Below, piece by piece: positions 17,085-37,418 of a stretch of DNA of 37,426 nucleotides. The DNA lies in NCBI GenBank assembly GCA_964543655.1, contig CAZIZE010000033.1:1-37426 (forward strand), given 5' to 3'. Within the stretch, counting starts at the first letter, position 1, and each line of letters starts with the position of its first letter. The translations under genes and the position numbers were made by a program. The notes beneath the pieces were generated by a model. It made no database searches, was not told the DNA's origin, and saw only the letters and a program-made list of their open reading frames with translations. The DNA comes from an uncultured bacterium (GTDB taxonomy: Bacteria > DYJV01).

Positions 17085-17099
17085 CTATTCCCCCTTAAT

Positions 17100-17143
17100 T
17101 GATTGAACAATCATTCAGTAATATAAAAAAAATGCAAAGTCAA
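17100..17143 (-). promoter_or_regulatory. Second FadR-type operator (17100-17117) overlapping a putative sigma70 promoter of the fad operon
   Basis: Minus strand TGAATGATTGTTCAATCA; -35 TTGACT (17143-17138), 17-nt spacer, -10 TACTGA (17120-17115). Confidence 0.75.
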
Positions 17144-17181
17144 GATTTTTTTTATTAATAAAAATTTATAAAAGAATCTTA

Positions 17182-20451: not shown

Positions 20452-23067
20452 ATGGAAATAATCACAACCCATTTCAATCCAGATTACGATGCTCTTGCCA
20501 GTGCAATTGCAGCTAAAAAACTTTTTCCCAATGCGTACATTGTTCTTCCTGGTAATAAAGAAAGGAGTATGAAAAACTTTTTCATTCAAACTATTATATA
20601 CTCCCTTGATATTGTTGATATTAATGAAGTGGATATTCAAAAAGTTAAAAAACTTATTATTGTGGACACATCAAGGAAAGATAGAATTGGAATTTTTTCT
20701 GAAATTATAAATAAAAAAGATGTTGAAATAATTGTATATGACCATCATCTTGAAGAAAATGAAATAGAAACAGAGCATAAATTTATAAAAAAAATAGGTG
20801 CCTGCACTTCTCTTTTAGTAAAGTTTTTGGAGCAAAAGCAAATTTCACTTACTCCTGAAGAAGCTACTACCTTAATGATGGGAATTTATGAAGATACGGG
20901 CAATCTTACATTTAACACAACAACAGAAGATGACTATTACTCTGCTGCATTTTTATTAAAACATGGAGCAAATCTCAATACTGTTAGAGATATTCTGTAC
21001 CATGATATTACAATTGAACAGGTTGAAATATTAAAACAGTTCATTGAAACAGAAGAAGTAATTAATATTAGAGGTGTCAGTATTTCTATTGTAACTGCTT
21101 CTCAAGATAATTATATCCCTGAAATTGCTGTTGCTGTTCATAAGTTTAAAGACATGAGAAATCTTCCTGTTGTTATTGCTATCCTTAGGCTTGGAAGTAA
21201 AATCTATCTTATATGCCGAAGCTCAGCTCATGAGATTAGTGTAAAATATATTGCAGAATATTTTGGTGGTGGTGGACACGATTCTGCTGCTTCTGCTGTA
21301 ATAAAAGAGAAAACAGTAGTTGAAGTTTATAATTCTATTAAAGCTCTACTTCTTACTCTTGACAAAATTTCTTTAACAGCCAAAGAGATAATGACATCAC
21401 CTGTTATAACCATTACAGAGAATGACAACATACTTTTTGCCAATGAAATTTTAAATAGATACAATATTAATGTATTACCTGTTATATGCGAAAAAGATGG
21501 TAAACTCAGAGGATTAATTACAAGGCAAATTGTTGGAAAAGCTATCTATCATAATCTTGAAGAACTTAAAGTAAAGGAATATATGCTTGAAGAGTTTAAT
21601 ACTGTTGCTCCAAACACTAACTTTGAAAAAATTAAGGATATTATTTTAAAAGAAAATCAGCGTCTTCTCCCAGTTGTAACCAATGGTAAAGTTGTTGGGG
21701 TTATTACACGGACAGATATTTTAAAAACAATTTACAACATTGAAAACAAAAATAATTATATTGAAAGTGGAACAATAGAAAAAGATGTAAAAAAATTATT
21801 AAAAGGTGAAGTAGACGAGTCTATTCTTTCTAAATTTCAAATACTTGGAGCAGTTGCTGATAGATTAGGATATGGTGTTTATGTTGTTGGTGGATTTGTT
21901 AGGGATCTGATGCTCAGAAGAGAAAATTTTGATGTTGATCTTGTTATTGAGGGTAATGGGATAACTTTTGCTAAATATCTGCTGCACCACCTTGATATTA
22001 TTGAGAAAATTAGAACCTATGAAAAGTTTAAAACAGCAAAAATTTTTTTTAAAGATGGCCTTGTTTTTGACCTTGCAACAGCAAGATTGGAATATTATGA
22101 AAAACCCGGGAGTCTTCCAATAGTTGAAAAGAGCTCTTTAAAAATGGACCTTTACAGAAGAGATTTTACTATTAATACTCTTGCTATAGATATAACCAAA
22201 AAGAACTTTGGTGAATTAATAGATTTTTTTGGTGGCGTAAAAGATTTAAAAGATAAAAAAATAAGAATAATTCACAACTTAAGTTTTGTAGAGGATCCTA
22301 CGAGAATTTTCAGAGCTTTTAGGTTTGCATGTAGATTTGACTTTACCATTGGTAAACAAACAGAAACCCTTATTAAAAATGCACAAAGTCTCAAGTTACT
22401 CAATACTGTTCCAAAATCAAGAATTGCTCATGAATTAAAAGCTATTTTTGAAGAAGAAAAAGTAAGAGAAATTATTGAAATGTTAAACAGATATAAACTT
22501 CTCAAATTTGTTTTTCCAAAAACCAATGTGAATCATAAACTTTTTCAATTGCTTACTGAATTAGAAGAGATAGTCAATTGGCATAAATTAACTTTTCCTT
22601 CAGAATATTTAGAGCAGTGGATTCTATTTTTAATGGCTTTTGTTTACAAATTAAAAAGAGAGGATGTAATTGAAACATGCGATACCATTGGTTTAAATGA
22701 AAAACATTGTGCAAAAGTTGCAAATATATTAAATGAAATGGATATTATATTAAAAGAGCTTGTTATGGATAAAAACTCCACTCCTTACAAAAGGTATAAT
22801 CTTTTGAAAAATAAACATATTGAAAGCTTGCTTTTCTGCATAGCCAGATCAACAACAGAACGTGTAAAACAATATATTGTAGAATTTTTAATTAAAAACA
22901 GATTTGTAAAGCCAGATTTAACTGGTCATGATCTTATTGCCATTGGTTTAAAACCTTCACCACTGTTTAAAGAAATATTTGAAAAAATTATTGAGCTGAA
23001 ATTAAACGGAAAAATTAAAAATATTAATGATGAAAAAAATTTTGTGGAAAAAAATTATTTAAATTAA
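20452..23067 (+). CDS. DHH-DHHA1-CBS pair-class II tRNA nucleotidyltransferase (probably A-adding enzyme)
   Basis: THFNPDYDA, DHH, GIYEDTG, GGGGH; two CBS repeats; VGGFVRD..DVDLV, RRDFTIN, EDPTRIFRA.RF. Confidence 0.88.
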   Translation: MEIITTHFNPDYDALASAIAAKKLFPNAYIVLPGNKERSMKNFFIQTIIYSLDIVDINEVDIQKVKKLIIVDTSRKDRIGIFSEIINKKDVEIIVYDHHLEENEIETEHKFIKKIGACTSLLVKFLEQKQISLTPEEATTLMMGIYEDTGNLTFNTTTEDDYYSAAFLLKHGANLNTVRDILYHDITIEQVEILKQFIETEEVINIRGVSISIVTASQDNYIPEIAVAVHKFKDMRNLPVVIAILRLGSKIYLICRSSAHEISVKYIAEYFGGGGHDSAASAVIKEKTVVEVYNSIKALLLTLDKISLTAKEIMTSPVITITENDNILFANEILNRYNINVLPVICEKDGKLRGLITRQIVGKAIYHNLEELKVKEYMLEEFNTVAPNTNFEKIKDIILKENQRLLPVVTNGKVVGVITRTDILKTIYNIENKNNYIESGTIEKDVKKLLKGEVDESILSKFQILGAVADRLGYGVYVVGGFVRDLMLRRENFDVDLVIEGNGITFAKYLLHHLDIIEKIRTYEKFKTAKIFFKDGLVFDLATARLEYYEKPGSLPIVEKSSLKMDLYRRDFTINTLAIDITKKNFGELIDFFGGVKDLKDKKIRIIHNLSFVEDPTRIFRAFRFACRFDFTIGKQTETLIKNAQSLKLLNTVPKSRIAHELKAIFEEEKVREIIEMLNRYKLLKFVFPKTNVNHKLFQLLTELEEIVNWHKLTFPSEYLEQWILFLMAFVYKLKREDVIETCDTIGLNEKHCAKVANILNEMDIILKELVMDKNSTPYKRYNLLKNKHIESLLFCIARSTTERVKQYIVEFLIKNRFVKPDLTGHDLIAIGLKPSPLFKEIFEKIIELKLNGKIKNINDEKNFVEKNYLN

Positions 23068-23435
23068 TAATTGGAGGTAGTTTGAAGCCTGAAATTCGGA
23101 GTTAGAATTAAGATATTTTTTTAATATAAACAGGTTATAAATTTTTCTATTGTTTCATTTCGTTAGAATATTCCCAAAAAGTTATTCAGATTAAAATGAA
23201 CAATCCTTTATACAAGTTCACAGTTTAAGGTCCATACCTCAAAGTTGAAAGATAATTAATAACAATAACTTAAGAATATTGAGGATATAATTTAAAGTAG
23301 AAAGTTGTATTATAACCATATTTAGTTTTACTCACCTATCTATTGTATAATTTTTTACCATTTCGTAATATAACGTTTAAAATTTCATAAAAATTTTTCT
23401 TGCATTTTTTTTTATTTTTTATTATTTGCTCACTC

Positions 23436-23637
23436 GCAGGTTCAGGGAAGAGGGTGAGAATCCCACACTGTCCCCGCAGCCGTGAGTCAGTCCGGTAATT
23501 TGCCGGAAGATTCTGATTCTTTGTCACTGATATGTTTGGTGTATGCTGGCATATTGGGAAGGCAAAGATCTTAATCAGAATCTGGTAACCTGACAAGTCG
23601 GAAGACCTACCTGCATATTATCTCTCGGGGATTAGAG
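23436..23637 (+). ncRNA. Cobalamin riboswitch
   Basis: P1 GCAGGT(23436)/ACCTGC(23614); AGGGAA; GGGTGAGAATCCC T-loop; ACTGTCCCCGCAGCCGTGA; GTCACTG...GGGAAGGC; B12 box AAGTCGGAAGACCT; downstream CTCT-CGGGGA-TT-AGAG hairpin whose loop is complementary to TCCCCG. Confidence 0.93.
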
Positions 23638-23789: not shown

Positions 23790-26378
23790 GTGTATAAAAA
23801 ACTTCTAATATTTTTAACATTACTATTTTGCTCAAATTATTTATTAGCAGAAACCCCTAAAATTATTACTAATTTATCTGCTAATAATTCAAAAATAAGT
23901 GGGGTATTAAAAATTTCTGGTATTTCAGAATCAGATTTAACTACAAATTGTTATTTTCAAAATGGAGACTCTTTAGGATTATGGATTGCTGCTATAGGAG
24001 AAAATTATTCCCAAATTGGCTCTATTTCAAATTGTAACTATTCTAATAATGAGCTGAATTGTAATATTGAAATTGATAATTTACAAAATGATGAATATAA
24101 AATATGGATAGGCCCTGGAATATTTTCAAAAAATTGTCCATTACCAGATGGATATGTAAAGGATGGATATGTCGATAATCAATCAACTATAAATAGCGCC
24201 TCCATTTATGAAGTTGCAAGCTTAGAACCAGTTTTCTCAGATATAACTGTAAATAATAATATAATTGCAGGAAAAATTGCTATAAACAATATTTCTGAAC
24301 ACCAGCTTTCAACATGTTTTTATCAATCTGATGGTTCAATTGGTTTATGGGTTGCGGCCATAGGATTGCAGAATTCAAAAATTGGCAATATATCAAATTG
24401 TTCATACAATAATGGCAAACTAATATGTAGTTTTGAAATAGATAACCTTAATAATGATAGGTACAGAATTTGGATTGGCCCAGGAATCTATTCAGAAAAT
24501 AATTGTTTAATTCCAAATGGCTATATTAGCAAAGAACATGTTGATGTTTCAATTAATAATGCTGATGTTTATACTGTAAGCAATGTTGAATCAGAAAATA
24601 CTTTAAGTGAAATAAATGTTAATAATAATGAGATAACTGGTAAAATTAATTTTAAAAATATCTCAGAAACCCAGCTTGCAAACTGCTTTTATCAATCAGA
24701 TGGCACCATTGGATTATGGGTAGCAGCAATTGGCACTCAAAGTTCACAAATAGGTCATATTTCAAATTGCAGTTTTAGCAATGGAAATCTCTCTTGTGAT
24801 TTTGCTATTGAAAATCTTAACAATGATACATACAAAATATGGTTAGGCCCCGGAATTTTCTGTGAAAATAATTGCTTATTGCCAACTGGTTATCTAAAAG
24901 ATGGTAATTTTGATGCAAATTTTAATGAAGCATCTACTTATAAAGTTAGTAATACAGCATCTACTGGAGGTGGAGGAGCTATTATTACTTCCACACCAAT
25001 AGAAAATCCAGAAGAAAAAGAATACACAACACAAATTAATATAGATGAAGTTATTAGTGATGATAATATAGCTGCTAATACAGAGAATTATATTGAAATA
25101 AACAGTGAGAAATTGGGTAAAGGAGTTGAATTTAATCTTTCAACTTCTGAAAAGCCTGTTTTATTTAAAGATAATAAAATTCCTGAAAATTTTAAAATAG
25201 TAGGTGGAGAAATTTTAGGCGGTCTCAAAGGTGATGTGGATATTAATAATTTGGAGAAAAGCTCTGATGTAGAACAAAAACTTAAAGAAGTTCTACCTGA
25301 AGTAAAAGATGTTACTATAAAACCATTAAATGGGAAGATTGAAGTTGAAAATGTTATCCTTCAAAATGTAAAAATAGATTCAGATAATATAGAAAATATA
25401 GATTTTGGCAAAGGTGTAATCTTTGATGAGAATACAATTAAGAATATTACTAATAGTGTAAATAAAGATATTTCCATAAAGCAAGTTGTTCCTGATGTAA
25501 AAATCACTACTAACAATATTAATGTAAACATGAATGTACCTTCTCCATCTTTTCCTATTATGGTAGATAAAAGTGGCAATATGGTAACGCCAGCTGATAT
25601 TGTCACAGATACTTTGAAAAGTGCTGGAATTAAAGATATCAAATCAGATGTGACAAACACAGGAGCAATTCAATTTGATATTAAAGGTGTTAAATTTTAT
25701 ACAATTATTAAAGATATTCTGCTTGGTGATGCAAATAATTTTACAGCAGATAATAATGCTAAGTTGTTGAGAAATGGCGAATTTTTAATAAAACAAAATG
25801 GTATAAACATTATATTATCTCCAGCTCCATATAATATTAATGAAATTGACTCGTTATTTGCATCCATTAAAGATTCTCTACCTTCTTTTTCAGCCAACAT
25901 AGATGAAGATGGTATATTAACAGCTTCATGGAAAGATAATAGTGGAACAACTATTAAAATAGCCTCCTGTTTCAGTGGCATGATTTCACAATCTGAAAAT
26001 AAACCATCACAACTTACATTATCTGTTAGTTTAAAAAATAGAGTTGCTGGAATCACAGCTACTTATACAGATGGAAGTGCAGAATTTTGGGCACCATATT
26101 TTATAGGAATGAAATATATAGAGACCTGGCTGGATAAATATATTAATAATGGTTCTCTTCAAAATTGGCAGTTTGATAGATATACCGGCATTCTTACTTT
26201 AACAACAAATGATGGAAAAGAAATAAAGGTTTCTCCTGACTTAAAATTTAGAGCTTTAACCATAGAAGAGCAGGAAAAATTAAACAAATCTTCTGATAAT
26301 GTTACCATTGAAAATATTAATAATAACTGGTTTTTAATAACACCAGAAGGTACTCAACAATTTAAAATAATTGAATAA
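23790..26378 (+). CDS. Secreted hypothetical protein with three tandem ~122-aa Cys-containing repeats and an unrecognised C-terminal region
   Basis: GTG start with GGAGG; Sec signal peptide (MYKKLLIFLTLLFCSNYLLA); GLW(I/V)AAIG and IW(I/L)GPGI each occur three times. Confidence 0.85.
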   Translation: MYKKLLIFLTLLFCSNYLLAETPKIITNLSANNSKISGVLKISGISESDLTTNCYFQNGDSLGLWIAAIGENYSQIGSISNCNYSNNELNCNIEIDNLQNDEYKIWIGPGIFSKNCPLPDGYVKDGYVDNQSTINSASIYEVASLEPVFSDITVNNNIIAGKIAINNISEHQLSTCFYQSDGSIGLWVAAIGLQNSKIGNISNCSYNNGKLICSFEIDNLNNDRYRIWIGPGIYSENNCLIPNGYISKEHVDVSINNADVYTVSNVESENTLSEINVNNNEITGKINFKNISETQLANCFYQSDGTIGLWVAAIGTQSSQIGHISNCSFSNGNLSCDFAIENLNNDTYKIWLGPGIFCENNCLLPTGYLKDGNFDANFNEASTYKVSNTASTGGGGAIITSTPIENPEEKEYTTQINIDEVISDDNIAANTENYIEINSEKLGKGVEFNLSTSEKPVLFKDNKIPENFKIVGGEILGGLKGDVDINNLEKSSDVEQKLKEVLPEVKDVTIKPLNGKIEVENVILQNVKIDSDNIENIDFGKGVIFDENTIKNITNSVNKDISIKQVVPDVKITTNNINVNMNVPSPSFPIMVDKSGNMVTPADIVTDTLKSAGIKDIKSDVTNTGAIQFDIKGVKFYTIIKDILLGDANNFTADNNAKLLRNGEFLIKQNGINIILSPAPYNINEIDSLFASIKDSLPSFSANIDEDGILTASWKDNSGTTIKIASCFSGMISQSENKPSQLTLSVSLKNRVAGITATYTDGSAEFWAPYFIGMKYIETWLDKYINNGSLQNWQFDRYTGILTLTTNDGKEIKVSPDLKFRALTIEEQEKLNKSSDNVTIENINNNWFLITPEGTQQFKIIE
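23865..24953 (+). repeat. Intragenic triplication (~366-369 nt period)
   Basis: GLW at aa 63, 185 and 308; four Cys at equivalent positions in each unit. Confidence 0.9.
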
Positions 26379-26396: not shown

Positions 26397-27878
26397 ATGG
26401 TAAAAAAATTCTATTTATTTATAATTGCTTGTTTATTGATTATAGGTAGTATTTCTTTAAAAGCTGAAACTTTGAATATTAAATCAGGATGGAATGTATT
26501 TCAATCAGACCTAAATATTGTTTCAGTTAATCAATTTGCAAAAGATGGCATTGTAGGTATTGTTAAATTAAAACCTGGTAAAAATTATGAGCTCACAAAA
26601 GATAATTGGTATGTATGGAGTGACAATAATACGTTGCTTAAAGCTTTAACTGATGCTGATTGGACAACTTTTGAAGGAATATATAAAAATAACCTTTATG
26701 CTGTATTTTCTACAAAATCCATAAACCTTGATATATCAAGCTCTTGTCAGATTCCTTACTTACCAATAGCTACAGAATCATATAATTATCAAACAGGAAT
26801 GTATTCAATAGTTGACCTAAACAATCTAACAGCGTATAAACAGTTAAATACATATTCTCTTGGTGGAGATATAAGAGCTTATGTTTATGGTGATTATATT
26901 TTTGTTGTTGATGCACCTAATAGTGGTAATACTTCCACATGGTATGTATATAAAATAGACCAAACATCAACAACACTTGACCAGACAAAAGCTAAAACAA
27001 CTATTGCCAATTATACTATTAATAGGCAGAATCCACACAGTATTGCATTTTCAAGCGATTCCAAAGCATACCTTACAACTTATTTTGATAATTCAATACT
27101 TATTTTTAATCCCCAAAATGGAAATGAGCTTGGCACAATTGATTTAACTCCATATTTATATACTGCTGACAATGGTACTCAAAATAAATATATTGGTGCA
27201 GAAGCAATGTTAATGACAGGTGACAAATTGTATGTATCACTTGATAGAGCGAGAACATATTATGGTGATGCCACTCCTGATAAAAGCATGATTCTTGTTA
27301 TAGATACAACAAATGATACTGTTACTAAATCTATTAAAGTTCCATATTCTCCAAGATCTCTACAAATTTTTGGAAATTATCTATACTTCTTATCTATGGG
27401 CGACTACTCCAACCCAATTGGCAAAATTTATAGAATAAATCTTTCAGATTATTCATTAGATAGCAATTTTGTAATCTCACCAATTGTTTCAGGTTCATCT
27501 ACTGAATACATAAAAAATTTTGTTATCACACCAGAAGGAGAATTGTTTTTGGTAACAAATGCTGGATGGGGACAGCCTTACAATGTATATATGATCGACA
27601 ATGTAGAAAAATATAATGATTCCACAAAAGCTGGATTAAATACCACAGCAATCTATTCTGCTTCTGGCTATGTACCTGATTTAGATTTTGTATGTGGTTA
27701 TCTTGTAATTGCTGACAGAGGAAAAGCAGATATAGACTATAAAACTAAAGAGGTAAAAGAAATTTTGCAGCAGGGAGCACTTGTTTTTATTGATACTAAT
27801 GGAAAAGTTGTTAAGAAAATTTTAGATACAGATCTTGGCTACCCTCCTTATAAAATAGGTTCTGATTACAATTATTAA
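26397..27878 (+). CDS. Secreted YncE/BtuG-like beta-propeller protein
   Basis: Signal peptide; blades such as NPHSIAFSSDSKAYLT, GTIDL, GDKLYVSL, ILVIDTTNDTVTKSIKV; lies directly before a TonB-dependent receptor in a B12-riboswitch operon. Confidence 0.65.
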   Translation: MVKKFYLFIIACLLIIGSISLKAETLNIKSGWNVFQSDLNIVSVNQFAKDGIVGIVKLKPGKNYELTKDNWYVWSDNNTLLKALTDADWTTFEGIYKNNLYAVFSTKSINLDISSSCQIPYLPIATESYNYQTGMYSIVDLNNLTAYKQLNTYSLGGDIRAYVYGDYIFVVDAPNSGNTSTWYVYKIDQTSTTLDQTKAKTTIANYTINRQNPHSIAFSSDSKAYLTTYFDNSILIFNPQNGNELGTIDLTPYLYTADNGTQNKYIGAEAMLMTGDKLYVSLDRARTYYGDATPDKSMILVIDTTNDTVTKSIKVPYSPRSLQIFGNYLYFLSMGDYSNPIGKIYRINLSDYSLDSNFVISPIVSGSSTEYIKNFVITPEGELFLVTNAGWGQPYNVYMIDNVEKYNDSTKAGLNTTAIYSASGYVPDLDFVCGYLVIADRGKADIDYKTKEVKEILQQGALVFIDTNGKVVKKILDTDLGYPPYKIGSDYNY

Positions 27879-27926: not shown

Positions 27927-29939
27927 ATGATGCATTATAGAAATTGGTTTATAATTATAATAATTTTTTTAACTCTATATTATACAAGCATATTTTCTGC
28001 AAATTTTTATATTCTTCCAGATATAATAGTGCAGTCATCTAAATATTCTCAATTAGAAAAAAGTCCTTACACAAAAACAGTAATTAATGTTGAAAAGCAT
28101 AAATTTGAAGAGAAAACCCTTGGTGAGCTTCTTGAAACAGCGCCTGGAGTTCATGTAACATCTCTTGCTGGACGAGGTTCATATACTACTATATCTATAA
28201 GGGGAAGCACTTCATCTCAGGTGCTTGTGTATATTGATGGCATACTTGTAAATAATGGTGGAGAGAGCAGTGTTGATCTTAGCACAATTCCAGTGGAAGA
28301 TATAAAAAAAATAGAAATTTACAGAGGAAATATTCCTCCTAAATTTGGTAGAGCTGGTATTGGAGGCGTTATTAATATTATAACAAAAAAGCGCTCTTCC
28401 ATGTTTAATAGTAGGCTTTCATATGGTAGTTTTAAATTTTATCAAATGGAAAACAATATTAATTATAACTTTAAAAATTTCAACAATTTCCTTAATATAT
28501 CTTTTGAAGGAAGTACAGAAGATTATCCTTATTATAATGATGACAACACTCCTTTTAATAAAACAGATGATTATCACGCACACAGGAGAAACAATTATTA
28601 TAACCAGAAAAATATTTTGTATAATTTGAGAAAAATTTTTAATACCTCTATTTTAAATATTACTTATAGACATTTCTACAAACACAAAGAATTACCTGGA
28701 GCTGCTCCAGCAAGAGATACTGAAAGTAGCGATACAGATGCATCATTAAATAGAATCAGAAATCAAGTTGAACTTTCATATTCATATAATTACAAAAATG
28801 CTATTTTTGGCATTCAAGGATACATTGGCAGAGAAAGAAAATATTTTAACAATCCTCATTATGCTCTTGGAATGTATAGTTTATTGAAATCAGCCTATTA
28901 TACACACAAAAATGGTTTTAATTTTTCATTTGATTTATCAAAAAATAATCTTTTAAATTTTAAATTTTATTTAACAAAAAATTTTGAAAATTTAAAAACA
29001 GATTTTACACCTAATACTTCTTTTTTAATTGATTCAAAATACAACAGGAAAGAAACTGATCTTACTATTTCAAATAAATTTTTCTTATTCAAAAAAAGTT
29101 TGATAATAGAGCCAGTGTTTAGAAAAAATATAATTACTGATACCAATTATAACAGTAATGTAAAATCACATTTTAATAAAAACTCTAAGTCAGCAGGAGT
29201 TAAATATTTTTTACCTTTTATAACATCTTTTAATCCATATATAAAATTTAATTATGGAAAGTTTTTCAGATTTCCTAATTTTTACGAAAAATTTGGTGAT
29301 GGAGCCACTCTCCTTTCAAGTGAAGGATTAAAACCTGAAAATAGTATTAACAGAGATTATGGTTTTGGTTTTAATTACTATTTCAATAAATACCCTTTTT
29401 CTATTTCAGGAGATTTTACCTATTTTAATAATTATGTGAAAGATCTTATTGAATTTGTAATGGTAAATGAAAGATACTCTAAATATAAAAATATTGAAAA
29501 TGCTAAAATAAAGGGATATGAAGTATTATTAAATTTCAATTTTAAAATAATCAATATAATAATGAATTACTCCAAACTTGATGCAAAATCAGGACAATTT
29601 GGCTATAAAAAAAACAAACCTTTACCAAATAGGCCAGAAAATTCAGCATACATGAGAATACAGCTTAATCTAAAAAAATTTTCTTACTGGATTGATGGTA
29701 ATAAAGTAGGCAAAAACTATTTTGACGATGGTGGTTATTACTATTACAATGATTATACAATATTTAATACTGGTTTTATCTACTCATACACCAAACATTT
29801 GAAATTTAGCATTACTGTTAAAAATTTTACCAACAATCAAGATATGTATGCTTATGCTGCTGGATACAATGTTCCGAAAACACCATACTATCCACTAAAA
29901 GGTAGGAGTTTCTATTTATCTATTAATTATAATTGGTAA
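27927..29939 (+). CDS. TonB-dependent outer-membrane receptor, probably corrinoid (BtuB-like)
   Basis: TonB-box-like LPDIIVQS; plug motifs PGV, SIRGS, VLVYIDG, IEIYRG, GGVINIITK; LKPE; C-terminal GRSFYLSINYNW. Confidence 0.9.
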   Translation: MMHYRNWFIIIIIFLTLYYTSIFSANFYILPDIIVQSSKYSQLEKSPYTKTVINVEKHKFEEKTLGELLETAPGVHVTSLAGRGSYTTISIRGSTSSQVLVYIDGILVNNGGESSVDLSTIPVEDIKKIEIYRGNIPPKFGRAGIGGVINIITKKRSSMFNSRLSYGSFKFYQMENNINYNFKNFNNFLNISFEGSTEDYPYYNDDNTPFNKTDDYHAHRRNNYYNQKNILYNLRKIFNTSILNITYRHFYKHKELPGAAPARDTESSDTDASLNRIRNQVELSYSYNYKNAIFGIQGYIGRERKYFNNPHYALGMYSLLKSAYYTHKNGFNFSFDLSKNNLLNFKFYLTKNFENLKTDFTPNTSFLIDSKYNRKETDLTISNKFFLFKKSLIIEPVFRKNIITDTNYNSNVKSHFNKNSKSAGVKYFLPFITSFNPYIKFNYGKFFRFPNFYEKFGDGATLLSSEGLKPENSINRDYGFGFNYYFNKYPFSISGDFTYFNNYVKDLIEFVMVNERYSKYKNIENAKIKGYEVLLNFNFKIINIIMNYSKLDAKSGQFGYKKNKPLPNRPENSAYMRIQLNLKKFSYWIDGNKVGKNYFDDGGYYYYNDYTIFNTGFIYSYTKHLKFSITVKNFTNNQDMYAYAAGYNVPKTPYYPLKGRSFYLSINYNW

Positions 29940-29959
29940 ATTATAAAGAGAGGTGTAAA

Positions 29960-31840
29960 ATGAAAAAAATATTAATTATCTTTTTTTTAATGATACTTTT
30001 TACAAAATTTCTATATGCTGACTACAACAGAATAGTTTCCCTAAATCCATCTATAACCCAGATGCTGTTTGCACTTGGTGAAGGAAACAAAGTGGTAGGG
30101 GTAACCTATCATGATACTGTGCCATTTGAAGCTACAAAAAAAACAATAGTAGGAGGTTTTTTTGCTCCTGACATAAAAAGAATTTCTAAGCTGCATCCTG
30201 ACCTAATATTCTGTGCAAAATTTCATAAGAATGTAATTAATCATTTTGAAAATAAAGCAAGAATTATTATTTTAAATGCTCATTCTATTGAAGATATTTT
30301 CAAAAACATTCAATTTCTTGGAAAATTTTTCAAAAAACAGAAAAAAGCAGAAGAAATCATCACTAAAATAAAAAAAGAGATAGCTCTTATTCAGGAGAAA
30401 TTAAAATTTATACCTATAAATAAGAGAAAAAGGGTTATAAGAATTATGGGTAGAGGATATGTGCCTGGAAAGAATTCTTTTCAAATTGATGTGATTAAAA
30501 GAGCAGGTGGAATTCCTTTTATTCCAAAGGAAAAAGGTGATATTTATAAAATTTCATTAAAAGAATGGAAAAAATTTAATCCTGATATAATTTATGTTTG
30601 TGGAAATGACAAAAATTATCTTCATAATTTTTTTCAACAAAAAGGCTGGAGAGATGTTAATGCTGTAAAATACAATAGAATTTTTACTTTTCCATGTGTT
30701 TTAACATGCAGACCTTCAATTTACACAGGTTATTTTATTCAATGGTTAAGTGCCACCATATATGGAGACGAATTTTTTAAAGAAAAAAATATTATTACAA
30801 AGCATAAAATTTTAAACAAAAAGCCTCTTAAAAACAATTTTAATTTTGTTAAGTCAATCAATCTTGTATCTGGAATTATAAACGATTTTCCACATAAAAC
30901 ACTTTTAATACAATTTAACAACCCTGAAAAAATTCTTTCAACACTTGATGGCTTTAGAAAAGTAAAGTTTGTTGGAAATCATTATCTTGTTCCTCCTCGC
31001 TGGAATGAGGGGCACAAAAATTTTAAAAAATTTAAACAGGAAGTTGCAACAGCTCTTGGCATTAACTTAAGAAATTCTTCTCTTTTATATACTGGTGCTA
31101 ATATGAAAAATCTTGCTTACAATTTTGCTAAATTTAAAGATATTAAATTGGAAGTCTTTGCAACAGCTGGTGTTCGCTCAAATGCAATGAGATGTGGTTA
31201 TGAAAAGGGTATATTTATTAATCATGGTACAATTAATATAATTGTTTTAACAAATTTAAAATTAAGTAATAGAGCTATGGCAAGAACTCTTATAACTGTT
31301 ACAGAGGGGAAAACAGAGGCTCTTCAAGAACTTGATATTAGAAGCTCCTATAATCCCATAAAGTATCAAGCAACTGGTACCGGAACAGATAATATAATTA
31401 TTGTATCTGGAAATGGAAGGAAAAAAGATATAGCAGGAGGGCATTCAAAATTTGCCCAAATACTTGCAAATCTTGTAAGGATTTCTGTGAAACAGGCAAT
31501 TTTAAAACAGAATAGAATTATTGCAAATAGAAATATTTTCCAAAGGCTTGAGGAAAGAAATATAAGACTCTTTAATTTATCGAAAATATGTAGTAATTAC
31601 AATAAGAAAAATTTAAAAGAAAATATGTTAAAATTGCAAAATATACTTTTAAACAAAAAATATGCAGATTATTTAAAGACATGTTTTGCTCTTTCAGATA
31701 GTTATAATTATCATTTAATAAATAGTTACAAAATATTAAATATATCAAAACATATGAAAAATATTAAGGAAACTAACTATCCACCTGTAATTGATTATTG
31801 CATTGATAATATTTTAAACTTGGTGATTTATGGAGATTAA
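29960..31840 (+). CDS. Exported BtuF-type substrate-binding protein fused to a CbiZ adenosylcobinamide amidohydrolase domain
   Basis: Signal peptide from ATG 29960; RIVSLNPSITQMLFALG..VVGVT (helical-backbone SBP); CbiZ motifs TGANM, ATAGV..NA, GTINII, TEGK..AL, ATGTGTD. Confidence 0.85.
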   Translation: MKKILIIFFLMILFTKFLYADYNRIVSLNPSITQMLFALGEGNKVVGVTYHDTVPFEATKKTIVGGFFAPDIKRISKLHPDLIFCAKFHKNVINHFENKARIIILNAHSIEDIFKNIQFLGKFFKKQKKAEEIITKIKKEIALIQEKLKFIPINKRKRVIRIMGRGYVPGKNSFQIDVIKRAGGIPFIPKEKGDIYKISLKEWKKFNPDIIYVCGNDKNYLHNFFQQKGWRDVNAVKYNRIFTFPCVLTCRPSIYTGYFIQWLSATIYGDEFFKEKNIITKHKILNKKPLKNNFNFVKSINLVSGIINDFPHKTLLIQFNNPEKILSTLDGFRKVKFVGNHYLVPPRWNEGHKNFKKFKQEVATALGINLRNSSLLYTGANMKNLAYNFAKFKDIKLEVFATAGVRSNAMRCGYEKGIFINHGTINIIVLTNLKLSNRAMARTLITVTEGKTEALQELDIRSSYNPIKYQATGTGTDNIIIVSGNGRKKDIAGGHSKFAQILANLVRISVKQAILKQNRIIANRNIFQRLEERNIRLFNLSKICSNYNKKNLKENMLKLQNILLNKKYADYLKTCFALSDSYNYHLINSYKILNISKHMKNIKETNYPPVIDYCIDNILNLVIYGD

Positions 31841-32552
31841 ATCATTAATACTTGGAATTATTTTTACTCTAAGTATATTTGCCATTAAATCTGGGATAGG
31901 ATTGTATTATATTTTTTTTAAAAATGATAAAAGAAAATTTTTTATAATATTATCTACATTTTTATCTTATTTCATTCTTTTCTCTTTAAGTTATTTTATT
32001 CTTGTAAAAATAAATATTTTAAATTACTTCTCATATTTTGAAGGTTTTTTGAAAACAGGAATGTTGCTCCATTTTATACTTGCAATTGGAATGCTATGGT
32101 GGGGAATAAGTGTGCTTACCAAATTTGAAGAAAACTCAAAAGCATATTTAATGTTAATATTTCCCTGTCCTTTATGCTCAATTGTTATTTTTCTTGCAAT
32201 ATCTTTTTTAATTAAATTTATTGGAAAATACAATTTTTCTTATAATATAATGTTCTTTTTGGGTTTTATTTTATTGCAACTTATTACAATATCAGCATTA
32301 TTTTTATTTTCAAAAATATTAAAAGTCAAATATATTAATGATCTTCTTGGTTTTTCTTTAATAGGTATTGGTTGCTATTTTTTAATAACTTACTGCTTTG
32401 CACCTGCTTTTTCTCAGGTAAATAGAATCTACAGATTTGCCAGTTATTCTAAAATTCATTTTACATTTGACAAGAACTGGTTAATCTTATTTTTTTTTGC
32501 AATTACAATAATTTTAATGGGATTTTATGTAAATAAAAGGAGATTAAAATGA
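31830..32552 (+). CDS. Multi-pass membrane protein, DUF2162-like putative transporter
   Basis: About 7 hydrophobic segments; FAIKSGIG, GMLLH and PCPLC motifs; sits in the usual DUF2162-MotA-DUF2149-CobN neighbourhood. Confidence 0.7.
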   Translation: MEIKSLILGIIFTLSIFAIKSGIGLYYIFFKNDKRKFFIILSTFLSYFILFSLSYFILVKINILNYFSYFEGFLKTGMLLHFILAIGMLWWGISVLTKFEENSKAYLMLIFPCPLCSIVIFLAISFLIKFIGKYNFSYNIMFFLGFILLQLITISALFLFSKILKVKYINDLLGFSLIGIGCYFLITYCFAPAFSQVNRIYRFASYSKIHFTFDKNWLILFFFAITIILMGFYVNKRRLK

Positions 32553-33190
32553 ACTTCAGTGCACTATTGCAAACAATTATCTACATTATTTCATCATCTC
32601 TTCTAATCCCTGTTATGTTTTTACTTGTTTTTCTGTTACTATGGATGCTTTTCATATCAGGGATGTTGCTTTCTGAATGGATTGAAAGAAAAAAATTAAA
32701 AAAAATAGTAAATATAAACCTTTTACTTGATGGAGTTGCAGAAAAAAAGAAAATACCAGAAGAATATTTTGAATATTTTTCACTTTATGTAAAATCATAT
32801 TTTAAAAGATTAAATGAACTTATTTCATTAAAAGATAAACTTTTTGAAATTAAAGTGGAAAATCTTCTTCAGGAAAAAGAATTAAATATGTTAAAGGAAC
32901 TTGATAAAATAAAAATGGTAATTAGAATTGGTCCCAGCCTTGGGTTAATGGGGACATTAATTCCTATGGGTACAGGTCTTGCCTCTCTTGGCCAGGGTGA
33001 TATTACAAAACTTTCCTCAAGCCTAATTATAGCATTTACAACTACCGTTGTTGGCTTGGGCTTAGGAGTAGTTGCATTCTTTTATGGGTCAATTAAAGAG
33101 AGATGGATTCAAGAAGATATGAAAAATATGGAGGTTTTTACAGAAACCATTGCAAAATTAAATGGAAATTATTTAGGAGAAAGTAAATGA
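32549..33190 (+). CDS. MotA/TolQ/ExbB proton-channel family protein
   Basis: IGPSLGLMGTLIPM...LIIAFTTTVVGL. Confidence 0.88.
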   Translation: MNFSALLQTIIYIISSSLLIPVMFLLVFLLLWMLFISGMLLSEWIERKKLKKIVNINLLLDGVAEKKKIPEEYFEYFSLYVKSYFKRLNELISLKDKLFEIKVENLLQEKELNMLKELDKIKMVIRIGPSLGLMGTLIPMGTGLASLGQGDITKLSSSLIIAFTTTVVGLGLGVVAFFYGSIKERWIQEDMKNMEVFTETIAKLNGNYLGESK

Positions 33191-33525
33191 AATTTATAAA
33201 AAAAAGAAGATTTTCTGAAAAAATTCAGGCATCAGAAGATCCCCTTTCTGGTGTTGCAAACCTTTTTGATGTAGGGCTTGTGTTCATTGTAAGCTTATTA
33301 CTAACAGTTATGAGTGTTTATCATATTACAGATTTTTTCAGTAACAAATCTGAAATTACTATAATGAAAAAGGATAGTAATGGTAAACTTGAAATTATTA
33401 TGAAAAAAGGGAAAATTATTAAAGCTTATAAAGCTACTGAAAAGATTGGAGAAGGTGAAGGTGAAAAACTTGGCACTGCTTATAGATTAAAAAATGGCAA
33501 AATTATTTATATCCCTGAAAAATGA
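33187..33525 (+). CDS. DUF2149 single-pass membrane protein (ExbD/MotB-like partner)
   Basis: EDPLSGVANLFDVGLVF transmembrane segment with an intramembrane Asp; GEGEKLGTAYRL..GKIIYIPE. Confidence 0.82.
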   Translation: MKFIKKRRFSEKIQASEDPLSGVANLFDVGLVFIVSLLLTVMSVYHITDFFSNKSEITIMKKDSNGKLEIIMKKGKIIKAYKATEKIGEGEGEKLGTAYRLKNGKIIYIPEK

Positions 33526-36500
33526 AAAAATTTTTTTATATTTTATTTATAGTTTTTTATTTTTGTAATTTTGCAAATGCAAAATCATACAAAAAAATTT
33601 TGTTTCTAATTGGTGAGCCATATAGCGGAGTTCTCTCAAAAGCAATAAAAAATATATCAATACAGAATCCAGATAAAAATATATCTCAAAATGTTACCTT
33701 TGTTGTTAGAAAAAATTTCTCTCAAGTTAATACGAAATTTTTATCAAAATACTCTATATTTCTTATAGACACAATGTATCCCTCTACAAAAAGAATAATA
33801 AAAATTATTCCATCTAACAAAAAAATTTTCTCTTTAAGAGCGCCTAATGGTGGTTATTCAACAGAATTTAATAATAAATTAATCTTTGATAAAAATATCT
33901 TAGAATATTTTTCATTTCCTGAATTACAAAACAGTGAAAATCTTATAAAATATGTAATGAACTTAGAAAATAAAACAAAATTTAAAATAGCAAAACCTAC
34001 TCTTCTAAAACAAGTTTTTATAGCACATCCTGATAGTAAAAAGCTATTTACAGATTACAAAGATTACTTAAATTGGTACAAATCAAGTCATCATTTTAAA
34101 AAAAATGGTTTCTGGGTGGGAATTACATATTACAGACCTATGGTGAATAATAGAATGATTACTTCTTTAGTAAAACAGTTTGAAAAGGCTGGGATTAATG
34201 TAATTGTTCTTTACAGTTTTCCAGATTATCTTGCAATAAAAAAATTTCTTTTGCCTCATAAAGTTGATTTATTAATAGGAATATCTTTCAAATTTTCTGC
34301 GTCCCTTGATAAAAAGGGTAAAACTACTCTTTCAAAATTAAACGTTCCAGTGTATAATGGAATATCATTATTTCAAACATCAGAAACAGTTTGGGCTTTA
34401 TCTAATAAAGGTCTAACACCATTTGAAGTTTCATTTCAAGTTGCCCTTCCTGAGCTTGCAGGTATTATAGAACCTACTGTAATAGCATCAAAGGAAAGGA
34501 TATTTGATCCTTACACTCAAAAAGATATATTTGTGAGTCAAACAATTAATTACCAAGTTAAATGGTTAATAAAAAGAATTAAAGCTATGAGGAATCTTCA
34601 AATAAAACCGAACAGAGATAAAAAAATCGCTATATTTTATTACAATCATCACCCAGGAAAACAGAATATAGGTGCAAGCTATTTAAATGTTATGAAATCG
34701 CTGTCAGTTATTTTAAACTCATTAAGAAAACATGGTTACAACATACCTGCAAAGGTGAAACTTAACTATAATACATTAAAATCAGAAATGCTCCTTTCTG
34801 GTAGAAATGTTGGTAATTATGCTCCTGGTGAAATTGATAAACTTGTAAGCAGTGGAAAAGTTGTATTATTGCCAATAAAAAAATATAAAAAATGGATAAA
34901 AAATGTTCCTACAAATTTCATAAATCCTGTTTTAAAAAAATGGGGAAAGCCTGAAGATAGTAAAATTATGGTTTACAAAAATAATTTTATTATTCCAATG
35001 GTAAAAATTAGTAAAAATATTATAATATTACCACAACCATCAAGAGGATGGGGGCAATCACCACTAAAAATGTATCATGATGTAACTTTGCCTCCTCATC
35101 ATCAATATATTGCTGTTTATTTGTGGTTAAAAAAGATTTTCAAAGCAGATGCAATTATTAACCTTGGAACACATGGTACTCAAGAATGGCTACCAGGCAA
35201 GCAGGTTGGAACTATTTACTGGGATTATGGTGATTATTTGGTACAGGATATTCCTGTTCTCTATCCTTATGTAATGGATGACATTGGAGAAGCAATTCAG
35301 GCAAAGAGAAGAGGAAGAGGTATAATTATTAGCCATCTTACTCCTGTTATGAAAAAAGGTAACCTTTTTGGAAAATATCTTAAACTTGCAGATAAAATAC
35401 AGCAATACAGCATTGCTCTTACAAAGGATAAAGAGCTTGCAAGACAAAAATTCTTAGAGATTAAAGAGCTTACAAAAGCAACAGGAATTAATAGAGATCT
35501 TAGATTAAGAAAAATCACACCTGATGCTGTTGAAAAAATAGAACATTATCTAATTGATTTAAAAGAGCAAACCTTGCCTTATGGGCTTCACACCTTTGGT
35601 AAAATTAGCAATAAAGGTGCAAAAGATTTTGCTTCATTACTTGCAAAAACTTATCCTAATTACAAAAAAAATTCATCTAAATATTTTTATAATATTTTAA
35701 AACAGAGCGCTAAAAATGAAATAAATAATCTATTAAAAGGACTAAATGGAGAATATATCTCCCCGGGCCATGGTAATGACCCTCTCCGATCTCCAGATGC
35801 GTTACCTGCAGGTAGAAATCTTTATGCATTTGATTCAAGCAAAATTCCTTCAAGAGAAGCTTACAACCTTGGTAAAAAACTTGTAAATGAGAGTATTTTT
35901 AAATTTAGAAAAGAACATAACAATCATTATCCCAAAAAGGTTGAAATTATTTTATGGAGTGTTGAAACTTGTAGAGATGAAGGCATAGCTGTTAGCCAGG
36001 CAATGTATTATATGGGTATAAAACCGGTATGGGATTCAAGAGGGAGAGTAAAAGGAGTTGCTGTTATACCAGGAAATATTTTAAAAAGGCCACGAATAGA
36101 TGTTGTTATGCAGCCATCTGGTTTATTTAGAGATATGTTTCCAAATTTAATTAAACTTCTTGATAAAGCTATTAATTTAGCTGTAAAACAGAGAGATATT
36201 GAAAACTTTTTAAAAGAGAACTCAGAAACATTATATAAAACATTAATTAAAAAAGGTTATAATAGGAAAGAAGCAAAAATTTTATCTAACATAAGAATAT
36301 TTGGTGAACCGCCAGGTGCATATGGAACAATGGTAGCAAAATTAACTGGAAGTTCTGGATTATGGGACAACAGCTCTGAAATTGCTGCTGTTTATATTAA
36401 CAGACTTTCCTATGGCTATTCAACTAAATATTGGGGGAAGCCTTTAAAAAAATTGTTTAAAGAGAATTTAAAAAATGTAGATACTGTTATTCATACTTTA

Positions 36501-37418
36501 TCAAGTAATCTATATGGGACAATGGATAATGATGATATGTTTCAATATGCTGGTGGAGCAGTGCTTGCAATTAAATCTATTACAGGAAAAACTCCAGAAC
36601 TTTACATTTCAAGAAGTGAAAATTCTCAAAAAGTCTATGTTGAAGATATTAATAAAACTATTGGCAAAGAATTTAGAATGAGATACACTAATCCCGCATG
36701 GATAAAAGCAATGAAGAAAGAAGGTTATGCAGGTGCAAAAGAAATGAGTAATTTTGTTGATTATATGTGGGGTTGGCAGGTAACTGTTCCAGATTCAATT
36801 GGAAAGAGAAAATGGAAAGAAACATTTGATGTTTATGTAAAAGATAAATACAATCTTGGTTTAAAAAAATTTTTTGAAAAAGAAAATCCATGGGCATATC
36901 AATCTATTACTGCAAGAATGCTTGAAGCTATTAGAAAAGGATATTGGAAGGCAGATAAAAAAATATTGCAAAAATTATCCGTTGAATACGCTCTAAATGT
37001 TATAAACAGAGGAGTTGCGTGTTGTGATCATACCTGTAATAATCCTGCTTTAAATCAAATGGTAGTTAACATAATTTCCCTTCCAGGTGTAATGAGTCCT
37101 GAACTTGTGCAAAAATTTAAAGCAATAATCACAAAAGCTATGGGTAAATCATTAAAAAAATCATTAAAAGATCGTGAAAAATTGCTTAAAAAAATATCAA
37201 ACATAGTTAAAAATATGAAAAGTAAAAATATAAACGGTAAAACAGAGACTAAAAAAGTAGTAAAAGGTTATGAATTAAAAGAAGAAACTAAGAAAAAAGA
37301 AGATTCTCAAGCAACAAGTTCAGGAATTCAGTGGTATTTAATGCTCTTTGTATTTGCAATAATAGTGGTAATATTTTCAGGAATAATTAAAATTCAAATA
37401 AAGTCAAAAAGAAGTTAA
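33522..37418 (+). CDS. CobN/ChlH-family chelatase-like protein with N-terminal signal peptide and C-terminal membrane anchor
   Basis: KKIAIFYYN, PPHHQYIAVYLWL, GTHGTQEWLPGK, AKRRG, LPAGRNLY, RPRIDVV, SGLFRD, DNDD, NPAWI..M..EGY.GA; AxA signal (NFANA); hydrophobic tail WYLMLFVFAIIVVIFSGII followed by basic residues. Confidence 0.9.
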   Translation: MKKFFYILFIVFYFCNFANAKSYKKILFLIGEPYSGVLSKAIKNISIQNPDKNISQNVTFVVRKNFSQVNTKFLSKYSIFLIDTMYPSTKRIIKIIPSNKKIFSLRAPNGGYSTEFNNKLIFDKNILEYFSFPELQNSENLIKYVMNLENKTKFKIAKPTLLKQVFIAHPDSKKLFTDYKDYLNWYKSSHHFKKNGFWVGITYYRPMVNNRMITSLVKQFEKAGINVIVLYSFPDYLAIKKFLLPHKVDLLIGISFKFSASLDKKGKTTLSKLNVPVYNGISLFQTSETVWALSNKGLTPFEVSFQVALPELAGIIEPTVIASKERIFDPYTQKDIFVSQTINYQVKWLIKRIKAMRNLQIKPNRDKKIAIFYYNHHPGKQNIGASYLNVMKSLSVILNSLRKHGYNIPAKVKLNYNTLKSEMLLSGRNVGNYAPGEIDKLVSSGKVVLLPIKKYKKWIKNVPTNFINPVLKKWGKPEDSKIMVYKNNFIIPMVKISKNIIILPQPSRGWGQSPLKMYHDVTLPPHHQYIAVYLWLKKIFKADAIINLGTHGTQEWLPGKQVGTIYWDYGDYLVQDIPVLYPYVMDDIGEAIQAKRRGRGIIISHLTPVMKKGNLFGKYLKLADKIQQYSIALTKDKELARQKFLEIKELTKATGINRDLRLRKITPDAVEKIEHYLIDLKEQTLPYGLHTFGKISNKGAKDFASLLAKTYPNYKKNSSKYFYNILKQSAKNEINNLLKGLNGEYISPGHGNDPLRSPDALPAGRNLYAFDSSKIPSREAYNLGKKLVNESIFKFRKEHNNHYPKKVEIILWSVETCRDEGIAVSQAMYYMGIKPVWDSRGRVKGVAVIPGNILKRPRIDVVMQPSGLFRDMFPNLIKLLDKAINLAVKQRDIENFLKENSETLYKTLIKKGYNRKEAKILSNIRIFGEPPGAYGTMVAKLTGSSGLWDNSSEIAAVYINRLSYGYSTKYWGKPLKKLFKENLKNVDTVIHTLSSNLYGTMDNDDMFQYAGGAVLAIKSITGKTPELYISRSENSQKVYVEDINKTIGKEFRMRYTNPAWIKAMKKEGYAGAKEMSNFVDYMWGWQVTVPDSIGKRKWKETFDVYVKDKYNLGLKKFFEKENPWAYQSITARMLEAIRKGYWKADKKILQKLSVEYALNVINRGVACCDHTCNNPALNQMVVNIISLPGVMSPELVQKFKAIITKAMGKSLKKSLKDREKLLKKISNIVKNMKSKNINGKTETKKVVKGYELKEETKKKEDSQATSSGIQWYLMLFVFAIIVVIFSGIIKIQIKSKRS

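Follow-up and report, generated by a model that had tools for sequence, protein, structure and literature searches.

The stretch of DNA described here, referred to below as the window, is an entire contig (C33) of 37,426 bases, with a G+C content of about 26-35%, from a 2.26-Mb genome that is 94% complete. Its last four genes encode a DUF2162 membrane protein, a MotA/ExbB-like protein, a DUF2149 protein and a large CobN-like protein, and they make up the half of an operon for acquiring corrinoids that belongs to the periplasm and the inner membrane; scarcity of B12 turns this operon on. Together, they are very probably a BtuS-type, corrinoid-linked counterpart of the Hmu machine of Bacteroidota. 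A periplasmic CobN homologue beside a MotA/ExbB-like protein and DUF2149 is a known design. The four genes are as follows:

31830-32552, forward strand: DUF2162 polytopic membrane protein, 240 amino acids (Pfam, 97.4 bits)
32549-33190, forward strand: MotA/ExbB-like proton-channel subunit, 213 amino acids, counterpart of HmuU (Pfam MotA_ExbB, 44 bits)
33187-33525, forward strand: DUF2149, an ExbD/TolR-like single-pass protein of 112 amino acids, counterpart of HmuV (Pfam, 109.5 bits)
33522-37418, forward strand: CobN-family protein (BtuS-type), 1298 amino acids (Pfam CobN-Mg_chel, 997.7 bits)

The first-pass annotation, made from the sequence alone, had described these genes as a translationally coupled set, and the open reading frames (ORFs), the Pfam matches and the sequence agree with that description: ATGA start/stop overlaps can be read directly at 32549, 33187 and 33522. 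The contig stops 8 bases past the stop codon of the CobN-like gene. More generally, over 300 proteins of about 1300 residues are related to the CobN-like protein, at 40-47% identity. Named relatives are labeled Desulfobacterota, Poribacteria, Hydrogenedentota, Planctomycetota, and others, and the nearest named record (61% identity) is a metagenome-assembled genome labeled Candidatus Methylomirabilis sp.

Gene neighborhoods were compared in 77 related loci, mostly of Desulfobacterota, drawn from one-per-species genomes, in which genes were found by phmmer with the window's own proteins. A gene was counted when it lay in the same-strand block as the CobN-like gene, and a subset of 47 loci comprises those whose block does not touch the locus end. 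The clustering of the four genes is far beyond chance, as the first two of the following counts make plain:

MotA-like and DUF2149 genes in the block: 62 of 77 loci; 44 of the subset of 47
DUF2162 gene in the block: 60 of 77 loci
DUF2162, MotA-like and DUF2149 genes, all three: 56 of 77 loci; 40 of the subset of 47
BtuF-CbiZ fusion in the block: 36 of 77 loci; 22 of the subset of 47
Receptor like that of the window in the block: 36 of 77 loci; 24 of the subset of 47

In addition, the MotA-like gene directly follows DUF2162 in 23 of 24 further loci, which include five named genomes; in the single exception, a receptor gene comes after DUF2162. Among 201 sampled genomes of the Desulfobulbus phylum, 19 contain DUF2162 above the Pfam cut-off.

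The products of the hmu operon in Bacteroidota are HmuY, the receptor HmuR, HmuS as the CobN homologue, HmuT as the membrane protein, HmuU of the MotA/TolQ/ExbB type, and HmuV, which is a DUF2149 protein (PMC11681262). HmuS has been shown experimentally to be a membrane-bound, periplasm-directed, NADH-dependent heme dechelatase (PMC12583661). As in the operon table given for P. gingivalis (PMC11681262), the window combines an exported, anchored CobN homologue with a receptor, a MotA/ExbB-like protein and DUF2149 in one operon. It shares with HmuYRSTUV the periplasmic anchored CobN homologue, its C-terminal extension with a Cys motif, the TonB-dependent receptor, and the T-U-V gene order; in contrast, a cobalamin riboswitch here replaces iron control, a BtuG-like protein replaces HmuY, and a BtuF-CbiZ protein is added. 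DUF2162 occupies the position that HmuT has in hmu operons. The likeness of these two proteins rests on operon position, because the Pfam DUF2162 model finds no match in B. thetaiotaomicron.

A second precedent is the BtuS family, defined by Rodionov 2003 (as cited in PMC6460266). BtuS1 and BtuS2 of B. fragilis are predicted to be periplasmic and membrane-anchored, and the BtuS1 operon (BF638R_2501-2512) holds cbiK (Rocha et al., PMC6460266). Similarly, Meslé et al. described Hmu-like operons without HmuY and with a cobalamin riboswitch in front, and suggested a role in cobalamin metabolism (PMC10100974). The arrangement is therefore not new and is already in print, both as hmuYRSTUV/BtuS (PMC12583661, PMC6460266, PMC11681262) and, in its riboswitch-preceded form, in PMC10100974. 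The CobN-like protein of the window belongs to the BtuS family as that family is described, the comparison being with its description and not with the BtuS1 sequence: a riboswitch lies upstream, the protein scores under the CobN/BchH equivalog cut-offs, and the locus contains BtuB-, BtuF-, and BtuG-like genes. Like BtuS1, it is related to CobN yet distinct from CobN and ChlH, belongs to an uptake locus linked to B12, and has a predicted periplasmic, anchored position; cbiK lies nearby in the B. fragilis operon (PMC6460266) and in 25 of the 77 loci. By contrast, the BtuF-CbiZ fusion, the triple fusions described below, and the wide spread in Desulfobacterota are unmentioned in the accessible parts of PMC6460266 and PMC10100974. 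A literature search that covered few subscription journals found no experiments on a BtuS system linked to a riboswitch, nor on BtuF-CbiZ fusions in the periplasm.

The upstream half of the operon bears on the substrate. Its order is riboswitch, 862-residue protein, BtuG-like, BtuB-like, BtuF-CbiZ, DUF2162, MotA-like, DUF2149, CobN-like, and the elements that precede the four core genes are:

23421..23628, forward strand: cobalamin riboswitch aptamer, with which the operon starts (Rfam RF00174, 64.8 bits; gathering score 31.5)
23790..26378, forward strand: secreted protein of 862 amino acids, first gene after the riboswitch, with a hydrophobic N-terminus
26397..27878, forward strand: BtuG-like beta-propeller of 493 amino acids, secreted, a probable surface corrinoid-binding protein (AlphaFold2 and Foldseek)
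27927..29939, forward strand: BtuB-like TonB-dependent outer-membrane receptor (Pfam Plug and TonB_dep_Rec_b-barrel)
29933..31840, forward strand: BtuF-like domain fused to a CbiZ adenosylcobinamide amidohydrolase domain, 635 amino acids (Pfam)

A corrinoid is well supported as the predicted substrate class, as had first been proposed, because the operon joins a cobalamin riboswitch (found by Rfam at the head of the cluster in six of six related loci), BtuG-like, BtuB-like, and BtuF-CbiZ proteins, and a CobN-type active-site motif. One of the six loci has a second riboswitch directly before the DUF2162 gene. With a custom nhmmer profile built from 10 riboswitches, a match was found inside the block or at most 2.5 kb upstream in 42 of the 77 loci, and in 37 of the 57 with 1 kb or more of upstream flank. 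Several loci without such a match have one further upstream, behind genes that the queries did not recognize.

The propeller has no Pfam family in the scan, and its AlphaFold2 model reaches a predicted local distance difference test (pLDDT) score of 88.1. In a Foldseek search of this model, 14 of the top 15 PDB rows were B12-binding lipoproteins of the BtuG type from B. thetaiotaomicron or BtuB complexes, with BtuG1, BtuG2, and BtuG3 of Bacteroides thetaiotaomicron among the named matches; the first row was a surface-layer protein of B. uniformis. E-values ran from 1.4e-14 to 1.4e-10 over the 15 rows and TMt from 0.70 to 0.79 over the first 14, and 17 sequence relatives of the protein were found. 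On the strength of this model, the 493-residue propeller probably binds corrinoid at the cell surface. As in the BtuG-BtuB capture system of Bacteroides, the predicted BtuG-like fold adjoins a TonB-dependent receptor, for which the best NCBIfam model is TonB-B12 (144 bits, under its cut-off). The fold is closest to Bacteroides proteins, yet the host is apparently outside Bacteroidota. The 862-residue protein has no Pfam or NCBIfam match and no usable protein-atlas match; it may be an additional corrinoid-binding component of the surface.

In the BtuF-CbiZ protein, Peripla_BP_2 covers residues 34-254 and CbiZ residues 327-518 (153.4 bits), behind a hydrophobic, signal-peptide-like N-terminus. 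The listed TTG start (29933-29960 in the window) overlaps the end of the receptor gene; with an ATG at residue 10 (MKKILIIFF...) as the start, the signal peptide becomes more typical, and translation may really begin there. The protein should act in the periplasm, because its predicted signal peptide and the fusion to a BtuF-like domain place CbiZ there. To our knowledge, the characterized CbiZ enzymes are cytoplasmic. The window shares a CbiZ domain, and its host genome CbiB, with CbiZ-dependent salvage and remodeling in archaea and Rhodobacter, and differs from it in the signal peptide and the BtuF-like fusion.

The CobN-like protein itself carries the following two features near its C-terminus:

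37020..37046, forward strand: CCDHTCNNP motif in a C-terminal extension that is shared with HmuS and absent from CobN and ChlH
37311..37406, forward strand: C-terminal membrane helix with a conserved SSG-x-x-W before it and a basic tail after it (hydrophobicity scan and alignment)

The body of this protein is predicted to lie outside the cytoplasmic membrane with the C-terminal helix as an anchor, a topology that was proposed in the first-pass annotation and that is supported, by inspection, by a signal-peptide-like N-terminus, the C-terminal helix with its basic tail, and fusions to a periplasmic binding protein. The N-terminus reads MKKFFYILFIVFYFCNFANA followed by KS and, judged by eye, has a basic n-region, a 14-residue hydrophobic core and an A-x-A site. 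A Kyte-Doolittle scan gives one strong hydrophobic segment, at residues 1264-1295, followed by the tail KIQIKSKRS. In 17 of 17 aligned relatives the C-terminal segment and basic tail are present, and the same scan finds an N-terminal hydrophobic segment in 11 of the 17; four of the other six appear truncated at the start. In two loci (L039 and L071), Peripla_BP_2, CbiZ, and CobN-Mg_chel occur in one open frame.

In sequence, the CobN-like protein combines features of HmuS and CobN. Over the whole protein, the PDB sequence scores are 508.6 bits to HmuS (9d26), 383.6 and 376.2 bits to two CobN proteins, and 367.1 bits to ChlH. The C-terminal 359 residues match HmuS to about residue 1200, whereas the CobN and ChlH matches end near 1145 and 1156, so that the C-terminal extension and anchor are common to HmuS only. 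The Cys motif of this extension reads ACCDHTCNNP against SCSGFVCDN in HmuS, and its CC...C form is kept in 77 of 85 aligned CobN-like ORFs from the 77 loci. Conversely, residues 501-600 score 89 bits to M. tuberculosis CobN vs 75 bits to HmuS, and the acidic motif TMDNDDMFQYAGG matches the CobN structures (LDSDDYYQFEGG, ADSDDYFQYHGG) and not SLDHVYEFMGG of HmuS. With the window protein as query, all NCBIfam equivalog models score under their cut-offs (NF004645, 979.9 vs 1619; TIGR02257, 599.7 vs 822).

The features used here to recognize the HmuS family are a Met-rich insertion, His-254, Met-79, the LSLDHxxEFMGG motif with the cation/heme ligand His-1209, and His-538 (PMC12583661). HFG(T/A)HG, the motif of His-538, is present in the query as NLGTHG with H551, although this motif is superfamily-wide; 84 of 85 CobN-like ORFs retain H551, and 84 of 85 retain E590. 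LSLDHxxEFMGG is absent, and His-1209 corresponds to D1005; the 12 commonest variants of the acidic motif, which account for 64 of the 85 ORFs, are D-N/T-D-D or D-T-D-G, and none has His there. In the HMMER alignment, the Met-rich insertion (domain IV, residues 780-898) has no counterpart, the query passing from 693 to 700 while HmuS runs from 682 to 903. Where head and neck meet, the heme ligand His-254 (HGR motif) is replaced: 'MAH' aligns with 'ISF', F256 stands at the position, and the commonest variants of this region among the 85 ORFs read xFxxKFx. The first 155 residues of the query, in the region of the heme ligand Met-79, are left unaligned to HmuS by phmmer.

By its sequence, then, the protein is a BtuS-type class I chelatase homologue with the topology and extension of HmuS and the active-site signature of CobN. 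It is not HmuS proper as judged by these motifs, because it has neither the Met-rich insertion nor His-254 nor the LSLDH motif, and does have a CobN-type DNDD motif; in short, it differs from HmuS in lacking the insertion, in F256 for His-254, and in DNDD for LDH. These differences bear directly on the idea that the operon is a true heme system, a Hmu orthologue that removes iron from heme. HmuS is the best overall PDB match, the gene architecture is the same (PMC11681262), and NCBIfam gives weak heme-receptor and IsdE matches to the receptor and the BtuF domain. However, a heme system would not be expected beside a cobalamin riboswitch, a BtuG-like protein, and a CbiZ domain, and in the two genes between riboswitch and receptor no Pfam family was found, HmuY included. 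Together with the missing HmuS motifs, this makes a heme system very improbable.

Relative to CobNST and ChlH/ChlI/ChlD, the protein belongs to the same superfamily, with conserved HGxxEW/LPGK, GE..QAKRR, and DxDD..Q..GG motifs that are most CobN-like; these chelatases are soluble, cytoplasmic, and driven by AAA+ proteins, whereas the window protein has a predicted signal peptide, a helix and the C-terminal extension. BtuS-type proteins give a two-part Pfam match, and canonical CobN paralogues one full-length match. In two related genomes, such canonical paralogues lie next to ChlID-like genes, are 24-28% identical to the window protein, and have no signal peptide, membrane helix, or extension. 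A third type of membrane-anchored CobN homologue was also seen (L146; G005 contig C2, 19700-24200): it has 1376 residues and 29% identity to the window protein, with a hydrophobic segment at the N-terminus and a helix and basic tail at the C-terminus; the Cys motif is missing, and the active-site motifs are divergent.

The remaining three core genes form a membrane trio. DUF2162 contains one feature of particular interest:

32163..32177, forward strand: PCPLC motif (residues 112-116) within a predicted membrane helix of DUF2162

This motif, already pointed out in the first-pass annotation, is present with both Cys and both Pro invariant; P112, C113, P114, and C116, as well as K20 and H81, are each identical in 41 of 41 sequences. 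Likewise, the intramembrane Asp described for DUF2149 was found as D28, which falls within hydrophobic segment 19-51 and is the same in all 41 of 41 sequences. In the MotA-like protein, the stretch GTLIPMGTGLA...AFTTTVVG is conserved in 40 sequences. Two features of a proton motor, a MotA_ExbB subunit and a single-pass partner with a conserved membrane Asp, are accordingly present, as in ExbB-ExbD-TonB and TolQ-TolR-TolA. The differences from these systems are DUF2149 in place of ExbD, the lack of TonB or TolA in the operon, and DUF2162 as a constant third gene; in the Pfam scan, neither an ExbD match for the partner, which matches DUF2149 only, nor a TonB_C domain in the operon was found. Two side observations concern the trio. 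In one locus (L003), DUF2162, MotA-like, and DUF2149 genes lie 3 kb from the CobN-like gene and have their own cobalamin riboswitch (16947-17156), and in one Desulfobacter genome (L022, 1-23831) a stretch of 24 kb contains three CobN-like clusters, with a trio for each.

HmuU and HmuV have been read as an ExbB and an ExbD that serve the receptor (PMC10100974; PMC12583661, figure 1 legend). Applied here, the MotA-like/DUF2149 pair would be a dedicated ExbB/ExbD set, with TonB encoded elsewhere and no mechanical tie to the CobN-like protein. The MotA_ExbB family match and the membrane Asp of DUF2149 fit this reading, and a receptor lies in the block at 36 of 77 loci, with a second receptor family at 24. 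However, the pair tracks the CobN-like gene (62 of 77) and DUF2162 more closely than the receptor (36 of 77), and Pfam finds no TonB-like gene in the operon. Canonical ExbB, TonB, and ExbD genes occur in the same loci (10, 8, and 8 of 77), and contig C31 of the host genome carries a canonical ExbB-ExbD-TonB set, so that the MotA-like pair is not the sole possible energizer of the receptor. Moreover, PF09919, PF09930, PF01618, and PF02514 all match in Methanosarcina acetivorans, as counted genome-wide and irrespective of gene adjacency, and this archaeon has no outer membrane. A pair dedicated to the receptor is thus quite unlikely.

The operon suggests a sequence of steps. Cobamides and cobinamides would be captured at the surface and drawn in via the receptor. 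BtuF-CbiZ would then bind the corrinoid and remove its aminopropanol/nucleotide arm, which would leave a cobyric-acid-type corrinoid resembling the natural ligand of CobN. The anchored CobN-like protein would hold this corrinoid in its central cavity and reverse the chelatase reaction, releasing cobalt as HmuS does iron from heme. Finally, DUF2162, the MotA-like protein, and DUF2149 would supply proton-driven work and a path through the inner membrane, on which the metal is likely to pass by the Cys-Pro-x-Cys and His site of DUF2162. For the CobN-like protein and its trio, we thus infer the removal of cobalt, a coupling to the proton-motive force, and a route for cobalt through DUF2162.

Reverse chelation, that is, the removal of cobalt from a CbiZ-trimmed corrinoid, is our favored working reading by analogy with HmuS, although we hold it tentatively and give it somewhat less than an even chance. 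It is favored because HmuS, the nearest characterized relative, performs that chemistry in the same setting, and because conservation extends to the catalytic His and Glu and to an acidic cluster of the CobN type. In addition, the product of CbiZ resembles the ligand of CobN, and CbiZ is sometimes fused to the CobN-like protein; CbiK, which uses cobalt, is often a neighbor, and DUF2162 has an intramembrane Cys/Cys/His set. These neighbors were identified by clustering the other ORFs of the 77 loci and naming each cluster by the Pfam result of one representative, which gave CbiK in 25 loci, the second receptor family in 24, and tetrapyrrole methylases in 6.

Several considerations weigh against cobalt removal. 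We know of no enzymatic removal of cobalt from a corrin, and the reaction would be costly and chemically difficult. Destruction of a corrinoid under B12 shortage also seems wasteful, because CbiZ together with CbiB, which is present in the host genome, would salvage it directly, and CbiZ is found in only 36 of the 77 clusters. The host genome encodes a CbiM-type cobalt/nickel transporter (NicO was not found in it). As for DUF2162, its AlphaFold2 model is a helical bundle with a pLDDT of 89 for which Foldseek gave no PDB match at E <= 0.001; VIA-align returned a best Z of 8.9, to half of a major facilitator superfamily transporter, with 5.8 for a ZIP transporter and 5.4 for CcdA. No fold family can be named from these values, because all lie within the range common for helical bundles. 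A btuS1 btuS2 double mutant of B. fragilis still freed protoporphyrin from heme, so that a BtuS protein need not be the catalyst (PMC6460266). Lastly, contig C96 of the host genome carries a split ChlID-like 'putative cobaltochelatase' pair (locus L138, 7635-9574).

The main rival to reverse chelation takes up several of these points. In it, the corrinoid is handed over intact: the CobN-like protein would be a periplasmic receiver or chaperone for the CbiZ product, and the trio a proton-driven importer that delivers it to cytoplasmic CbiB. CbiZ and CbiB make up a full salvage route, for which cobyric acid has to be in the cytoplasm; the Pfam scan found no BtuCD-type gene in the operon, and only 5 of the 77 loci have an ABC ATPase cluster. 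The trio is obligate, its members always together, and the conserved Cys and His residues of DUF2162 could bind corrinoid cobalt rather than a free ion. Furthermore, a published proposal has HmuTUV moving heme across the inner membrane, with HmuS as a protein that hands heme on (PMC13227078). Against this, the BtuF domain is already there for binding, and residues essential to (de)chelatase chemistry are kept (H551 and E590, each in 84 of 85 ORFs). Among the three FecCD-family permease matches in the host genome, two are strong (288.6 and 252.9 bits) and one is weak (35.9 bits), and a bundle of 240 residues is small for a corrinoid of about 900 Da. On balance, intact hand-off and import is possible but doubtful.

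The C96 pair also tells against one element of the first-pass annotation, which had taken the AAA+ partner to be lacking. A 359-residue ChlI-like AAA+ protein scores 506 bits to TIGR02442 ('putative cobaltochelatase') and 434 bits to BchI-ChlI, both under cut-off, and 290 bases downstream of its gene lies that of a 189-residue VWA protein, which matches the C-terminal part of TIGR02442. CobT was not found in the host genome, and CobS was not the target of a separate search. On one side of the pair is aspS and on the other a response-regulator gene, and its contig gave no riboswitch match. The only CobN-family protein of the genome looks periplasmic, which leaves the pair without an evident partner; there is likewise one DUF2149 and one DUF2162. 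The genome of L047 (G004), whose CobN genes are all BtuS-type, has the same kind of split pair.

It could be argued from this pair that the CobN-like protein is a biosynthetic cobaltochelatase. The genome has a single CobN-family gene, it encodes the ChlI-like AAA+ and VWA proteins, the only CbiK found has a signal-peptide-like N-terminus, and CbiX was not found in this 94% complete genome; because of the latter, and barring an internal CbiK start, there is no obvious cytoplasmic enzyme to insert cobalt in the de novo pathway. However, the topology of the CobN-like protein and its fusions to periplasmic domains do not fit such a role, and the gene does not adjoin the AAA+ pair, unlike the canonical CobN paralogues (24-28% identical) beside ChlID-like genes in two related genomes. 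A ChlID-like gene is missing (best 36-41 bits) from two of five named genomes that carry BtuS-type genes, and the split pair is present in one. A biosynthetic cobaltochelatase is therefore hardly tenable. The host genome also contains CbiD, and three cobalamin riboswitches in all. The second of these, on contig C77 (locus L091, 2280-5824), controls the only CbiK detected, which begins with the signal-peptide-like sequence MKRIVKILIAFSLILCFATSNIFA and is followed by a 441-residue protein (weak DUF3573) and a tetrapyrrole methylase.

Returning to reverse chelation, its most far-reaching form holds that a stator-type motor (MotA/ExbB-like plus DUF2149) replaces the AAA+ ATPase and, via the CobN-like helix and/or DUF2162, drives the first known biological decobaltation of CbiZ-trimmed corrinoids, with cobalt entering through the Cys-Pro-x-Cys of DUF2162 and being reused for de novo B12. 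This complete scheme is unlikely to hold in full.

Two further observations concern neighboring genes. Among the 77 loci, a BadF/BcrA-type ATPase occurs in 7 and an HgdB-like protein in 6 (for example, L008 13714-14331 and L045 15894-17201); these resemble an ATP-driven electron-activating pair and might serve corrinoid handling by low-potential reduction. In the window, the gene immediately upstream of the riboswitch (20452-23067) encodes an 871-residue fusion of DHH/DHHA1, CBS, and a poly(A) polymerase/CCA-type head, which scores 767 bits to an A-adding tRNA nucleotidyltransferase model, under its cut-off of 1440.

B12-controlled CobN homologues of the BtuS type have been known for about twenty years, from comparative genomics rather than by function. 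Since HmuS was shown to be a dechelatase in 2025 (PMC12583661), the question of a corrinoid counterpart has become directly testable. The operon described here is a compact test case, in which surface capture, a receptor, a periplasmic CbiZ, a CobN-like protein, and the trio are placed under one riboswitch, and the related loci add clues of their own: the BtuF-CbiZ-CobN fusion, the CobN-type metal motif, and the canonical Ton genes beside the MotA-like pair. What this machinery does to corrinoids bears on the recycling of cobalt and cobamides by anaerobes, and also on the roles of HmuT, HmuU, and HmuV in the medically studied heme system.

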